From a virus (Duplodnaviria > Heunggongvirae > Uroviricota > Caudoviricetes): DNA of 8,763 bases. Positions 1 to 5,456 of the stretch are shown here, in pieces. The position numbers and the translations under genes are program-made. Below the pieces are notes generated by a model. It had not been told where the DNA came from and did no database searches. It saw only the letters and a list, made by a program, of their open reading frames with translations. Each line of letters starts with the position of its first letter. The stretch's first letter is position 1. The DNA lies in IMG/VR virus record IMGVR_UViG_2737471850_000007, one strand, 5' to 3'.

Positions 1-213
1 ATGTCTAACAAAATGACTGGTTTAGTGAAATGGTTTAACCCTGAAAAAGGTTTTGGTTTCATCACGCCGAAAGATGGCAGCAAAGATGTGTTTGTCCATT
101 TCTCAGCAATTCAGAGCAACGATTTCAAAACATTAACTGAGAATCAGGAAGTTGAATTTGGTATTGAGAACGGACCTAAAGGTCCTGCCGCTGTTCATGT
201 AGTGGCGCTTTGA
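1..213 (+). CDS. cspI: CspA-family cold-shock protein, 70 aa
   Basis: ATG at 1, TGA at 211-213. Protein [21 protein letters not shown]...[13 protein letters not shown] has the cold-shock domain RNP motifs (KGFGFI, VFVHF) and, from memory, the CspI-type sequence. Confidence 0.85.
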
Positions 214-223
214 GGTAGACAAT

Positions 224-412
224 ATTACAAACCATATTCACTTTAGATGCCCGTGTTGTCATGGTTCCCAGTATAGAACATCATCTTTTGATGTTTCTGA
301 CATGAATCCTTTCGGGGCAAAATGTATCTTTTGTAAATCAATGATGATTACATTTGATAATATTTCACAATACTTAAATGCCAGCCGTCTGTCGTTGGAT
401 TTAAAAAAGTGA
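224..412 (+). CDS. Candidate Ogr/Delta-like zinc-ribbon small protein. The frame is open from 203 to 412 with no ATG, GTG or TTG before the internal ATG at 302; a possible AUU start lies at 224. May be a pseudogene.
   Basis: Translation ...HIHFRCPCCHGSQYRTSSFDVSDMNPFGAKCIFCKSMMITFDNISQYLNASRLSLDLKK gives C-x2-C-x21-C-x2-C. Flanking residues (F-x-C-P, R-T-S after the first Cys pair, I-T-F-D-x-I-x-Q-Y-L after the second) resemble P2 Ogr as I remember it. GAGGT at 212-216 lies 7 nt before ATT 224 and overlaps the cspI stop. An intrinsic terminator follows at 418-441. Confidence 0.4.
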   Translation: MTNHIHFRCPCCHGSQYRTSSFDVSDMNPFGAKCIFCKSMMITFDNISQYLNASRLSLDLKK

Positions 413-417
413 AAATG

Positions 418-441
418 AAGGCTCCTTCGGGAGCTTTTTTG
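418..441 (+). terminator. Rho-independent terminator: GC-rich stem with UUCG tetraloop, then T6
   Basis: AAGGCTCC-TTCG-GGAGCTTT followed by TTTTTT (435-440), 6 nt after the stop of the zinc-ribbon frame. Confidence 0.7.
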
Positions 442-484
442 CTTGGTGTCTATTCGATGGATACTCACATACTACGGTAACATC

Positions 485-715
485 ATGAAAAAAATCATAG
501 TTTTTTTTAACTCTGAACCAGCAGTGGTAGTGCCAGCGATGACTGGAGTTAACACCATCATGCGTGAATATCCAAATGGCGAAAAAACACACCTTACTGT
601 AATGGCCGCAGGGTTTCCATCTCTGACCGGAGATCATAAAGTCATTTATGTAGCCGCGGATCGACATGTTACTTCAGAAGAAATTCTGGAAGCAGCAATA
701 AGGCTCTTGAGTTGA
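485..715 (+). CDS. ynfN: Small hypothetical protein, YnfN-like. 76 aa from ATG 485; 51 aa from ATG 560, which matches the K-12 YnfN length I recall.
   Basis: ORF in the six-frame track (443..715). Internal ATG at 560 is preceded by GGAG (545-548). Position between cspI and gnsB matches Qin gene order. Function unknown. Confidence 0.5.
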   Translation: MKKIIVFFNSEPAVVVPAMTGVNTIMREYPNGEKTHLTVMAAGFPSLTGDHKVIYVAADRHVTSEEILEAAIRLLS

Positions 716-804
716 TTTGATGCTATTGCATTGATAATTCAGGAAAATTCTCTTTGTCTGTTTGTGTAAAATTTAGACTATCGTATGTTGATTATTGCGA
801 TGTT

Positions 805-845
805 TCATCTTATCTTTTATACGTTTGCACCATATAATCGACTTA
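805..845 (+). promoter_or_regulatory. Candidate sigma70 promoter for gnsB: perfect -10 TATAAT at 833-838, weak -35
   Basis: TATAAT at 833-838 with only a 3/6 -35 match (ttatct) 17 bp upstream. It would give a leader of about 40 nt before the gnsB RBS AAGAGGAAA. Confidence 0.25.
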
Positions 846-886
846 CTGTGTAACTGGAAAGTCATAACAGACTAAAAGAGGAAATG

Positions 887-1060
887 ATGAATATTGAAAA
901 CTTAAAAACAAAAGCAGAAGCAGATATTTCTGAATATATAACAAAAAAAATTATTGAACTTAAGAAAAAGACCGGGAAAGAAGTTACCAGTATTCAGTTT
1001 ACCGCACGGGAAAAAATGACGGGTCTTGAAAGCTATGATGTCAAGATTAATTTAATCTGA
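887..1060 (+). CDS. gnsB: GnsB-type small protein, 57 aa (Gns family)
   Basis: Not in the ORF track because it is under 60 aa. ATGATG at 884-889 with RBS AGAGGA at 876-881; TGA at 1058-1060. Protein MNIENLKTKAEADISEYITKKIIELKKKTGKEVTSIQFTAREKMTGLESYDVKINLI resembles GnsA/GnsB from memory. Confidence 0.7.
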   Translation: MNIENLKTKAEADISEYITKKIIELKKKTGKEVTSIQFTAREKMTGLESYDVKINLI

Positions 1061-1086
1061 TGTATTCAATAATAAAATTTATCCAT

Positions 1087-1115
1087 AAACCTCGTTTTTA
1101 CGGGGTTTTGTTATA
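1087..1115 (+). terminator. Rho-independent terminator downstream of gnsB
   Basis: AAACCTCG-TTTTTA-CGGGGTTT stem-loop (one G.U pair) followed by a T-rich tract TTTTGTTATATTT. Confidence 0.55.
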
Positions 1116-1174
1116 TTTGAATGGTTCCGAATATCTAAATCACAATTGTTGATGGTTTTTATTAAACCAATGCA

Positions 1175-1203
1175 GTCCGGCTCAGGAGTGAGAGAAGCCG
1201 GAC
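1175..1203. repeat. Perfect 8-bp inverted repeat with 13-nt loop between the convergent genes gnsB and ydfO
   Basis: GTCCGGCT (1175-1182) and AGCCGGAC (1196-1203) around loop CAGGAGTGAGAGA. It sits just 3' of the ydfO stop on the minus strand, but no clean U-tract follows on either strand. Confidence 0.35.
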
Positions 1204-1211
1204 GTTATGGT

Positions 1212-1622
1212 TTAGCGTGGTAAGATCTGTGTAGTTTTCTGGATGCTTTCAGTAAATAGTAATGAATTATCAAAGGTATAGTAATATCTTTTTTGTTCGT
1301 GGATATTTGTAACCCACCGAAAAACTCCTGCTTTAGCAAGGTTTCTTCTGTATTCCTGAAATGTGATCTCTCTGGATTTCAGCTTATTAGAGGTCGTTTC
1401 TATAAGATGCCTATCCTTTGAAAATTTGACAGACACAATGTTTTTTAGGCCCTTTAATAACACTGTATTATCATTTTTTAATACAATATGAACATTCTCT
1501 GTGGCTAAATAGTAAATGTAATGTGAGACATTGTGACGTTTTAGCTCAGAATAAAACCATTGATAGTTTAAATCGTTTCGAACTTTATCAAATATTTGTT
1601 TAAAAATGACTACCTGATCCAT
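1212..1622 (-). CDS. ydfO: Prophage hypothetical protein, YdfO-like (DUF1398-type from memory). 136 aa from the second ATG; the ORF track starts 5 codons earlier at 1637.
   Basis: Minus-strand ORF 1212..1637. The ATG at 1620-1622 is preceded by GAAGG at good spacing, whereas the ATG at 1635-1637 has a C-rich upstream region without an SD. Confidence 0.55.
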
Positions 1623-1674
1623 AGATAAACCTTCCATGTGATATGAGGGGGCGTAGTCTGCACGATTATCTAAA

Positions 1675-2229
1675 TTGCTTCAATCTGGTCTGACCTGTTT
1701 TCTGAGCAATTCAGTAATGTCACTCTTTTCTTTGTTTGCTTCAGAAGTAACTCTTTTTTCTGAGCACAGTCTCCGGCGGCAGGCTTCAATGACCCAGGCT
1801 GAGAAATTCCCGGACCCTTTTTGCTCAAGAGCGATGTTAATTTGTTCAATCATTTGGTTAGGAAAGCTGCGCCGGGAAGTTGAAGAACTGCGGCAGGCCA
1901 GCGAGACAGATCTCCAGCCAGGGACTATTGAGTACGAACGCCATCGACTTACGCGTGCGCAGGCCGACGCACAGGAGCTGAAAAATGCCAGAGACTCCGC
2001 TGAAGTGGTGGAAACCGCATTCTGTACTTTCGTGCTGTCGCGGATCGCAGGTGAAATTGCCAGTATTCTCGACGGGATCCCCCTGTCGGTGCAGCGGCGT
2101 TTTCCGGAACTGGAAAACCGACATGTTGATTTCCTGAAACGGGATATCATCAAAGCCATGAACAAAGCAGCCGCGCTGGATGAACTGATACCGGGGTTGC
2201 TGAGTGAATATATCGAACAGTCAGGTTAA
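1675..2229 (+). CDS. nohA: Terminase small subunit (lambda Nu1) homolog, chimeric. The C-terminal ~120 aa are Nu1-like; the N-terminal ~63 codons are unrelated and the true start is uncertain (TTG 1675, ATG 1717, 1789 or 1834).
   Basis: From [50 protein letters not shown]... to the end ...LSEYIEQSG the protein matches the lambda Nu1 C-terminal region from memory. Upstream of about 1864 it does not. The 3' end overlaps the start of the next gene by 26 nt, as in lambda. Confidence 0.6.
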
Positions 2230-3178
2230 CAGGCTGCGGCATTTTGTCCGCGCCGGGCTTCGCTCACTGTTCAGGCCGGAGCCACAGACCGCCGTTGAAT
2301 GGGCGGATGCCAATTACTATCTCCCGAAAGAATCCGCATACCAGGAAGGGCGCTGGGAAACACTGCCCTTTCAGCGGGCCATCATGAATGCGATGGGCAG
2401 CGACTACATCCGCGAGGTGAATGTGGTGAAGTCTGCCCGTGTTGGTTATTCCAAAATGCTGTTGGGTGTTTATGCCTACTTCATAGAGCATAAGCAGCGC
2501 AACACACTTATCTGGTTGCCGACGGATGGTGATGCCGAGAACTTTATGAAAACCCACGTTGAGCCGACCATCCGTGATATTCCTTCGCTGCTGGCGCTGG
2601 CCCCGTGGTATGGCAAAAAGCACCGGGATAACACGCTCACCATGAAGCGTTTCACCAATGGGCGTGGCTTCTGGTGCCTGGGCGGTAAAGCGGCAAAAAA
2701 CTACCGTGAAAAGTCAGTGGATGTGGCGGGTTATGATGAACTTGCTGCCTTTGATGAGGATATTGAACAGGAAGGCTCTCCGACGTTCCTGGGCGATAAG
2801 CGTATTGAAGGCTCTGTCTGGCCAAAATCCATCCGTGGCTCCACGCCCAAAGTGAGAGGCACCTGCCAGATTGAGCGTGCAGCCAGTGAATCCCCGCATT
2901 TTATGCGTTTTCATGTTGCCTGCCCGCACTGCGGGAAGGAGCAGTACCTTAAATTTGGCGACAAAGAGACGCCGTTTGGCCTCAAATGGATGCCGGATGA
3001 TCCCTCCAGCGTGTTTTATCTCTGTGAGCATAATGCCTGCGTCATCCGTCAGCAGGACGGAACGTTTAAGCCAGCATACAGCAACAACATGGCCTGGTGT
3101 CTGTGGGATATGCTGACCCAGAGGATATTGCATCCGCCGTGGCGCTTGAGGATGCAAGTACGACGAAAAAGGGGATAG
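2204..3178 (+). pseudogene. Terminase large subunit (lambda gpA) N-terminal fragment of about 284 aa, followed by 41 codons of out-of-frame junction sequence
   Basis: GTG start at 2204. [59 protein letters not shown]...CVIRQQ matches lambda gpA from memory, including the Walker A-like KSARVGYSK. Homology ends at about 3055; stop at 3176-3178. The C-terminal two-thirds of gpA are absent. Confidence 0.8.
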
Positions 3179-4881
3179 TACAGCTCAGCAGTGCGACCAA
3201 CAGCACATCTGAAACGCTTGCCGCGACACCGAAGGCAGTTAAAGCAGCGAATGACAATGCGAATGGCAGGGTACCATCTAACCGAAAAGTTAACGGGAAA
3301 GCACTGACTGCGGATATAACATTAACACCGAAAGATATTGGCACTTTAAATTCAGTAACGATCTCTTTCTCTGGCGGGGCAGGGTGGTTCAAACTGGCAA
3401 CGGTTACCATGCCACAAGCGAGTTCCATCGTTTACATCGCATTGATTGGTGGCGCTGGTTACAACGTCGGCTCCCCACAGCAGGCAGGCATTTCAGAACT
3501 GGTTCTACGAGCAGGCAATGGAAACCCCAAAGGGATTACCGGAGCTTTGTGGAAGCGTACAGCCGTCGGATTAACGAATTTCGCCTGGATCAACACATCC
3601 GGCGATACATATGATATTTACGTTGAGATTGGCAATTATGCGACGAGTGTAAATATCCATTGGGATTGTACTACAAATGCGTCAGTTTCTATTTATACCT
3701 CGCCAACATATTCAGCGAGTAAGCCTTCCAGCGTTACCGGTGGTGTTGTTTATACGATGTATAGCTCACATCAGAAACCTACACCATCAGATATTGGAGC
3801 GCTGCCAACGACTGGAGGGACTATTTCAGGTCCGTTGTCTGTTACTGATGGGATCACCGGGGCACTGAAGGGGAACGCCGATACCGCGACGAAACTTGCG
3901 GCAGCCCCAAAAATTAACGGTGTTAAGTTTGATGGCTCGGCGGATATTAACCTCACGCCGGAAAATATTGGTGCATTTGCCCGACGTTCGACGGGGGCTT
4001 ATGCGGATTCGGATGGAGCCGTTCCCTGGAATGCCGAATCAGGCGCTTACAATGTCACCCGCTCTGGCAACAGCTATATTCTGGTTAACTTCTATACCGG
4101 AGTCGGAAGTTGCCGGACCTTGCAGATGAAGGCACATTACAGAAATGGAGGTCTGTTCTACCGTTCCTCAAGAGATGGCTATGGTTTTGAGGAAGACTGG
4201 GCAGAAGTTTATACCTCGAAAAATCTTCCACCAGAAAGCTACCCAGTCGGCGCACCAATCCCGTGGCCATCAGATACCGTTCCGTCTGGTTATGCCCTGA
4301 TGCAGGGGCAGACTTTTGACAAATCTGCTTACCCGAAACTTGCAGCCGCTTATCCGTCAGGTGTGATCCCTGATATGCGTGGCTGGACGATTAAGGGCAA
4401 ACCTGCCAGTGGTCGGGCCGTATTGTCTCAGGAACAGGACGGCATTAAATCGCACACCCACAGCGCCAGCGTATCCAGTACGGATTTGGGGACGAAAACC
4501 ACATCGTCGTTTGATTACGGCACTAAATCCACGAATAACACTGGTGCGCATACCCATAGTGTTAGCGGTACGGCTGCTTCAGCCGGTGCACATACCCATT
4601 CGATGACATTTGTTTCAGGTGGTTCCAGTGGTGCTCCGGGAAGTGGATCACCTGATTATTCTAAATACAGTGTTAACACTTCTTCTGCAGGCGCTCATAC
4701 GCACTCTGTATCGGGTACTGCTGCAAGCGCAGGTGCACACGCACATACTGTCGGTATTGGTGCTCATACGCACTCCGTTGCGATTGGTTCACATGGACAT
4801 ACCATCACCGTTAACGCTGCTGGTAACGCGGAAAACACCGTCAAAAACATCGCATTTAACTATATTGTGAGGCTTGCGTAA
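3097..4881 (+). CDS. stfQ: Side tail fibre protein, C-terminal portion (lambda Stf-like). It has no canonical ATG start and is probably a truncated remnant.
   Basis: Frame open from 3070; Stf homology starts near 3121 ([41 protein letters not shown]). The C-terminal region [74 protein letters not shown], the GAHTHS/GAHAHT His-x-His repeats and ...[18 protein letters not shown] match lambda Stf from memory. TAA at 4879-4881 overlaps the tfa ATG. Confidence 0.7.
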
Positions 4882-5456
4882 TGGCATTCAGAATGAGTGA
4901 ACAACCACGGACCATAAAAATTTATAATCTGCTGGCCGGAACTAATGAATTTATTGGTGAAGGTGACGCATATATTCCGCCTCATACAGGTCTGCCAGCA
5001 AACAGTACCGATATTGCACCGCCAGATATTCCGGCAGGCTTCGTGGCTGTTTTCAACAGTGATGAGGCATCGTGGCATCTCGTTGAAGATCATCGGGGTA
5101 AAACGGTTTATGACGTGGCTTCCGGCGACGCGTTATTTATTTCTGAACTCGGTCCGTTACCGGAAAATGTTACCTGGTTATCGCCGGGAGGGGAATATCA
5201 GAAGTGGAACGGCACAGCCTGGGTGAAGGATACGGAAGCAGAAAAACTGTTCCGGATCCGGGAGGCGGAAGAAACAAAAAACAGCCTGATGCAGATAGCC
5301 AGTGAGCATATAGCGCCGCTTCAGGATGCTGTGGATCTGGAGATCGCAACGGAGGAAGAAACCTTGTTGCTGGAAGCCTGGAAAAAGTATCGGGTGTTGC
5401 TGAACCGTGTTGATACATCAACTGCACCGGATATTGAATGGCCAGCACTGCCGTAG
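4881..5456 (+). CDS. tfaQ: Tail fibre assembly protein (lambda Tfa-like), 191 aa
   Basis: ATG at 4881 overlaps the stf stop (TAATG), with SD GAGG 8 nt upstream. Protein [51 protein letters not shown]... is near-identical to lambda Tfa from memory. Confidence 0.85.

Follow-up and report, generated by a model that had tools for sequence, protein, structure and literature searches.

The Qin prophage of Escherichia coli K-12 (reference NZ_CP064680, locus L001) is annotated with ydfO and ynfO (77 aa, "YlcI/YnfO family protein"), in this order, on the minus strand and then, beyond an intergenic region, with nohA on the plus strand ("DNA-packaging protein"). The order ydfO–ynfO–cos–nohA is common to K-12, lambda, and thousands of E. 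coli genomes. The lambda cosN 12-mer GGGCGGCGACCT, annotated as a "cos site" in phage DE3, lies at position 3014 of L001, and the R and I elements of lambda cosB sit between cosN and nu1, the lambda counterpart of nohA. The N-terminal domain of Nu1 is a winged-helix domain, which we take to be the one that binds cosB, and the region of residues 61–181 serves self-assembly and binding to gpA. The solved structures of the N-terminal domain span residues 1–55 (PDB 7LW0) and 1–68 (PDB 1J9I), and the nearest relatives used for comparison were nohA (Qin) and nohD (DLP12) of K-12, together with lambda gpNu1 (PDB 1J9I).

For ynfO (Qin) or ylcI (DLP12), no function was found in the searchable literature, and the YlcI/YnfO family was found mentioned only three times: in a convergent ybcW–ylcI transcript overlap seen by RNA-seq in K-12 (PMC12288877), among the cargo of phage satellites (PMC13612085), and as PHROG 949, "unknown function". 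A profile search of 1.84 billion representatives shows the family to be small, at 184 representatives. A 64-aa homologue is also present in lambda (DE3) itself, where its minus-strand gene lies about 200 bp from cos (L004 1280–1474, equal to EU078592.1 19687–19881). The first 49 residues of this homologue are identical to K-12 YnfO; it is unannotated in the DE3 record, and J02459 also has no feature under the match.

The window, by which we mean the whole stretch of 8,763 nucleotides that was analyzed, corresponds to the right-hand portion of an E. coli cryptic prophage of the lambdoid Qin type, as evidenced by its open reading frames, Pfam matches, and comparison with K-12, and is identical to the E. 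coli draft assembly GCA_012072605.1, contig AAROEY010000003.1. Its genes are, in order, cspI, (ynfN), gnsB, ydfO, the pair of remnants ynfO' and nohA', the terminase gene remnant A', stf', and what we take to be tfaQ, pinQ, a ydfK-like gene, and ydfJ', the last four names being in part our assumption from the K-12 map. The ydfO gene (1212..1637, minus strand) is intact, matches Pfam DUF1398 with an E-value of 1.7e-46, is annotated as the same gene in K-12, and is the downstream neighbor of ynfO, with which it shares its orientation. Elsewhere in the window, position 501 (within 443–715) has one T more than K-12 strain CETR1G40; ynfN is labeled "frameshifted" in K-12, and its frame is open both in the window and in strain MSB1_9I. 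Rfam placed an IS009 sRNA inside tfaQ (5224–5422, plus strand; 221 bits, above the gathering score) and the 3' part of a cspA-type thermoregulator leader over cspI (1–244, plus strand; above the gathering score), the latter truncated at the left edge of the window. In the focal region, Rfam and repeat scans gave nothing relevant.

Comparison with K-12 by BLAST aligned window 1–1867 to L001 903–2768 (ydfO/ynfO) with 99.8% identity and window 1863–2212 to L001 3382–3731 (nohA) with 100% identity. The two alignments overlap at the deletion junction (1863..1867) in AAAGC, a 5-bp microhomology that is found at both K-12 breakpoints (AAAGCG on the left, AAAGCT on the right) and once in the window. 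Coordinate offsets and a base-by-base comparison show that 618 bp of K-12 (L001 2769–3386, equivalently 2764–3381) are absent from the window and that nothing has been added. An earlier reading of the window, made from the sequence only, had observed that homology to Nu1 begins abruptly at about 1864, and the K-12 alignment confirms this by placing the breakpoint at 1863–1867.

The removed DNA, over which K-12 Qin and lambda are 98% identical, held the ynfO start codon and codons 1–16 (MSTKNRTRRTTTRNIR), the whole ynfO–cos–nohA intergenic region with cosN, and, as seen from the alignment to K-12 and lambda, the nohA start and codons 1–60. The cosN 12-mer was searched for on both strands of the window and is absent; cosB is counted among the losses given the position of the R and I elements between cosN and nu1 in lambda. 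We consider it highly probable (about 93%) that an internal 618-bp deletion in a Qin-type lambdoid cryptic prophage left the odd segment as its scar, a case of ordinary stepwise decay. The ancestral layout would have been that of K-12 and lambda, with ydfO and ynfO pointing away from cos on one side and nohA (nu1) and A on the other, and the deletion, with its ends in AAAGC, could be a single event or the sum of two, of 593 bp and then of 25 bp. In the two-step route, a 593-bp allele would lose 25 bp between AAAG repeats. Either way, the outcome is two 3' gene remnants joined in opposite orientation, each without its own start codon and upstream DNA. We infer that the mechanism was microhomology-mediated, through slippage or illegitimate recombination.

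On the minus strand, the junction leaves a remnant of ynfO (ynfO', 1680..1867) that comprises codons 17–77 and the stop codon of this YlcI/YnfO gene and is 99.8% identical to K-12 up to 1867. The 57-aa minus-strand peptide (MIEQ...RPD) that the sequence-only reading had reported at 1680–1853 is indeed there: it corresponds to residues 21–77 of K-12 YnfO except for S55T, has more than 1000 homologues, and matches Pfam DUF3950 (PF13132) over model positions 1–30 of 30 with an E-value of 1.4e-21, far beyond chance. The minus-strand frame had been judged the better-looking of the two, and it does carry real coding information, but not an intact gene, being a truncated remnant without a start codon and 16 codons. 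The remnant starts at F17 and lacks, besides the start codon, the basic tail and residues I15 and R16 of the I-R-F strand. As its N-terminus is missing, ynfO' falls below the cut-off of the NCBIfam model YlcI_YnfO_N (NF041551), with 21.1 bits against a required 30, whereas the full-length protein reaches 36.6. Compared with ynfO of Qin and ylcI of DLP12, the window keeps, within 1680–1865 (YnfO residues 17–77), the complete DUF3950 core (helix, G-x-NFSAWV loop, helix). The segment had also been taken for the 3' part of an unrelated minus-strand gene, foreign to the locus and recombined into nu1; the DUF3950 match upholds the first half of this proposal, and the second half fails on the collinearity with K-12. 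The small gene expected between nohA and ydfO, which could not be placed at the time, is the segment itself: it is ynfO, the natural neighbor.

On the plus strand, the nohA remnant (nohA', 1863..2229) comprises codons 61–181 and the stop codon of a Nu1-type small terminase subunit and is 100% identical to K-12 nohA over 1863–2212. It begins at K61 and has neither the N-terminal domain nor a start codon; the central and C-terminal region (residues 61–181) is present. Set against the residues spanned by the solved structures, nohA' is without most of the solved N-terminal domain. The loss of the cos-binding domain had been foreseen, and the forecast was if anything too modest, as cos itself is also gone. 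With respect to membership in the lambda-type small terminase subunits, the N-terminal domain, the upstream cos, and an intact A are all missing. In relation to its two closest relatives, nohA' is identical at the DNA level to K-12 nohA from codon 61 to about codon 176 and ends in the authentic C-terminus of lambda Nu1 (...SEYIEQSG); K-12 nohA is complete at the N-terminus and altered at the C-terminus, whereas the remnant in the window is the reverse. None of the five assemblies with the junction (see below) shows a stop codon or frameshift gained in nohA', the divergence there being too low for this to carry weight.

The frame of nohA' extends upstream to give a plus-strand open reading frame of 184 aa (1675–2229) with a TTG start immediately after a TAA stop codon. 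Its residues 63–167 match Pfam Phage_Nu1 (PF07471) at model positions 60–164 of 164 with an E-value of 1.6e-58, and its residues 1–62 matched no Pfam family. The 5' extension (1675..1862, plus strand) is spurious and is the antisense of ynfO'; the long open reading frame exists only since the ynfO antisense happens to be open and in frame. The suspicion that the roughly 63 plus-strand codons before the Nu1 homology are antisense translation therefore holds, because they lie opposite a real minus-strand gene and have no Pfam match. It had been proposed beforehand to decide between the strands by whether the plus-strand N-terminus matches a conserved domain and whether the minus-strand peptide has homologues; with no Pfam family for the former and homologues for the latter, the minus-strand reading wins.

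A 32-mer across the junction was found in five assemblies, namely the source of the window, GCA_039509045.1, and three Logan runs. These two NCBI drafts and three Logan runs stem from separate projects and pipelines and show two different downstream structures. The junction was not found in one piece in any of 5,426 complete E. coli genomes, nor was it found in the GTDB species representatives. The complete genome of MSB1_9I carries a sister deletion of 593 bp, whose left breakpoint lies at most one base away from that of the window and which keeps 25 more bases of nohA (GGATGCTGAAATTGAGAACGAAAAG) than the window. As 25 is not a multiple of three, the ynfO-antisense frame of MSB1_9I must be out of phase with nohA', and the chimeric open reading frame is thus not conserved there. 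Both remnants in MSB1_9I are labeled "incomplete; missing N-terminus" (pseudogenes) by PGAP. The junction in the window lies 25 bp further into nohA, leaving the antisense frame in phase, with the result that a complete "gene" rather than pseudogenes is called by annotation pipelines. This is reflected in the exact-sequence look-up at NCBI, where the 184-aa chimera is EEW1605860.1, "terminase small subunit", and the 57-aa peptide is EMY6677225.1, "YlcI/YnfO family protein", in another assembly than EEW1605860.1. The two entries are two readings of the same scar, and both should be pseudogenes, as in the PGAP annotation of MSB1_9I. The deletion in MSB1_9I and the nohA'::stfQ' junction of K-12 are events of the same kind as that in the window, short-homology deletions that strip packaging and head genes.

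Downstream of nohA', the remnant of the terminase large subunit gene (A', 2204..3057, plus strand) comprises codons 1 to about 285 and matches Pfam GpA_ATPase with an E-value of 3.7e-51. Matches of phage DNA to A end at 3057, where a second deletion scar follows. In three Logan contigs (L006–L008) A runs past 3057 and is fused to a C-terminal fragment of gpJ, with lom and a full stf behind it; in the window, a further deletion leads from about codon 285 of A into stf. Since the same junction precedes different downstream structures in the Logan contigs and in the window, the ynfO–nohA deletion came before one or more others; the decay was stepwise, and the junction is not an assembly artifact. 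The second scar of the window is itself composite (3040–3130), with about 21 in-frame codons that resemble a fragment of gpJ, followed by the interior of stf.

The A' sequence of the window (2284–3049) differs from the allele of L006–L008 at 25 positions (about 3%), 11 of which are also variant in MSB1_9I, and the 2,283 bp to the left of this patch hold only two to three differences. The sequence pattern suggests that A' may be a recombination patch derived from another lambdoid prophage after the ynfO–nohA deletion. MSB1_9I and the Logan contigs have the terminase A remnant allele in common, yet 77 positions distinguish them within about 4 kb.

A consensus scan of window 1500–2400 revealed no sigma-70-like promoter and no terminator; it should be noted that the consensus promoter scan also found none upstream of the intact K-12 ynfO, making this a weak, non-discriminating test. 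No convincing Shine–Dalgarno sequence was seen at TTG 1675 or at ATG 1717, 1789, and 1834 on the plus strand, nor at the minus-strand ATG 1853; the strongest start signal is a weak AAGAG 3 nt before ATG 1834. Late transcription in lambdoid phages is Q-dependent, and read-through of the plus strand is plausible. We infer that both remnants are non-functional pseudogenes.

The abrupt break in homology, and the fact that the gene family upstream of it is unrelated to Nu1, would also be expected if recombination had put DNA from an unrelated locus in place of the 5' part of nu1. The upstream sequence is, however, the normal neighbor in normal order and orientation in K-12, lambda, and thousands of genomes, and both flanks are 99.8–100% identical to K-12 Qin, with 618 bp missing and none added, which leaves a foreign origin scarcely credible. 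The absence of the exact junction from the complete E. coli genomes and from the GTDB representatives might instead point to a cos region collapsed by a short-read assembler. Against this stand the identical junction in five assemblies that differ in project and pipeline, the downstream differences of three of these assemblies, whose A remnant allele is about 3% divergent from that of the window, and the near-identical 593-bp deletion in the complete genome of MSB1_9I; such a collapse is exceedingly improbable. An engineered sequence or artifact, considered because of the same absence from complete genomes, was rejected in view of the presence of the junction in five assemblies.

A different question is whether the scar has made a working gene, either a truncated Nu1 (from ATG 1834, or as the 184-aa chimera) or a 57-aa YnfO fragment, with a putative role in interference, aimed for instance at the terminase of lambdoid phages entering the cell or at full-length YlcI paralogues. 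The frame of nohA' is intact to the authentic Nu1 stop codon, 63 codons are open upstream of it, ATG 1834 is preceded by the weak AAGAG, an antiterminator gene is kept upstream (Antiterm in L003), by which late read-through as in lambdoid phages is plausible, and the junction persists in lineages whose downstream structure has diverged. But the scans found neither a promoter-like site nor a convincing ribosome-binding site, the neighboring A is truncated and fused to fragments of J and stf in a manner typical of unselected decay, the allele is rare, being absent from the complete genomes searched, and the chimeric open reading frame is not conserved in MSB1_9I, where the 25 extra bases must break the phase; a gained function is very unlikely on this balance. 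The Nu1 fragment in the scar presumably keeps the regions for self-assembly and gpA binding, as far as lambda terminase can be taken as a guide. By analogy, the fragments of Nu1 (61–181) and gpA (1–285) could act as dominant-negative decoys that poison the assembly of superinfecting lambdoid terminase, a notion we regard as highly doubtful; if late read-through expressed the fragments, the dead prophage would be a packaging-interference defence.

The sequence-only reading had also noted that the minus-strand peptide resembles ribbon-helix-helix (RHH) proteins, and for the DUF3950 family as a whole this is probably right, since several weak signals agree. In a curated, diverse alignment of the family (A4), residues R16, F37, and V41 are invariant and I15, F17, S38, and A44 nearly so, and the consensus begins TxKNIRFPxxLIExI. 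I15 and R16, conserved in DUF3950, sit in the deleted part, leaving ynfO' without the invariant Arg16 of the family. Aligned with hhalign to P22 Arc (query sequence identical to PDB 1ARQ), YnfO residues 12–33 fall on Arc residues 9–30 (QFNLRWPREVLDLV...) with a pairwise E-value of 0.0057, below significance; the DUF3950 motif TKNIRFPxxLIExI is thereby set against the Arc segment QFNLRWPREVLDLV in the register of the strand and helix A. With hmmsearch against the 177,635 sequences of the PDB, A4 matched best to 9KKD, an RHH protein of the CopG family, the alignment spanning helix A, loop, and helix B with a non-significant E-value of 0.078. YnfO as a single sequence or as a low-diversity profile gave only a chance match in the PDB, to ribosomal protein uL16; the relevant match appeared only with the more diverse profile. 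Pfam RHH_6 is matched by one of 38 DUF3950 members, not significantly (E-value 0.092).

AlphaFold2 monomer models of the protein have a pLDDT of 70–72, with helices at 19–32 and 37–73 and no strand; a monomer model cannot form the intersubunit beta-ribbon by which RHH homodimers bind the major groove of DNA. Foldseek returned 49 matches for the monomer model, all with E-values above 2.7, of which about 44 are RHH proteins judging by their entry names (among them MazE9, NikR, Arc, ParD, KacA, VapB, NikA, ORF56, and a TCP domain). The RHH systems used for comparison were P22 Arc and Mnt, CopG, ParD, and the N-domain of NikR. Taken together, sequence profiles and models make it likely that DUF3950 is an RHH family; we stop short of calling this proven, since the signals are consistent but none is significant alone, and the monomer model lacks the intersubunit ribbon. 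N14 and R16 of YnfO, which lie in the deleted residues 1–16, align with N11 and R13 of Arc. In Arc, these two residues contact the bases. By this analogy, the 57-aa fragment would lack the DNA-reading element, as the basic tail and the greater part of the strand are among the deleted residues. In contrast to RHH repressors and antitoxins, no DNA target or partner gene is known for DUF3950, the binding of DNA being a prediction.

More distant family members are found in other settings. The DUF3950 genes at around 3000–3200 of loci L090–L105 are 57–72% identical to family member P0224 and often overlap a long open reading frame on the opposite strand; the elements resemble P4- or PICI-type satellites, with an AlpA-like regulator and a P4-type integrase as neighbors, the open reading frames being judged by eye. 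In another distant member (P0265, 120 aa), the N-terminal DUF3950 is fused to a Terminase_2 segment (Pfam E-value 1.6e-11), which could reflect either a genuine connection to packaging or a fusion produced by gene calling. The combination of ynfO and ydfO was considered as a toxin–antitoxin or defence pair (RHH with DUF1398) and rejected, given that there was no PADLOC match and no functional literature; the pairing also does not look conserved, with no obvious DUF1398-like or toxin-like neighbor seen by eye next to the distant members.

For biology, the deletion matters little: the erosion of Qin is well known, and this adds a further step to it, one that ends any remaining chance of cos-dependent packaging of the prophage. 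For the family, YlcI/YnfO, which is also found beside cos in lambda, is probably a small Arc/CopG-like RHH protein with predicted DNA-binding activity, providing a testable handle on a y-gene family.
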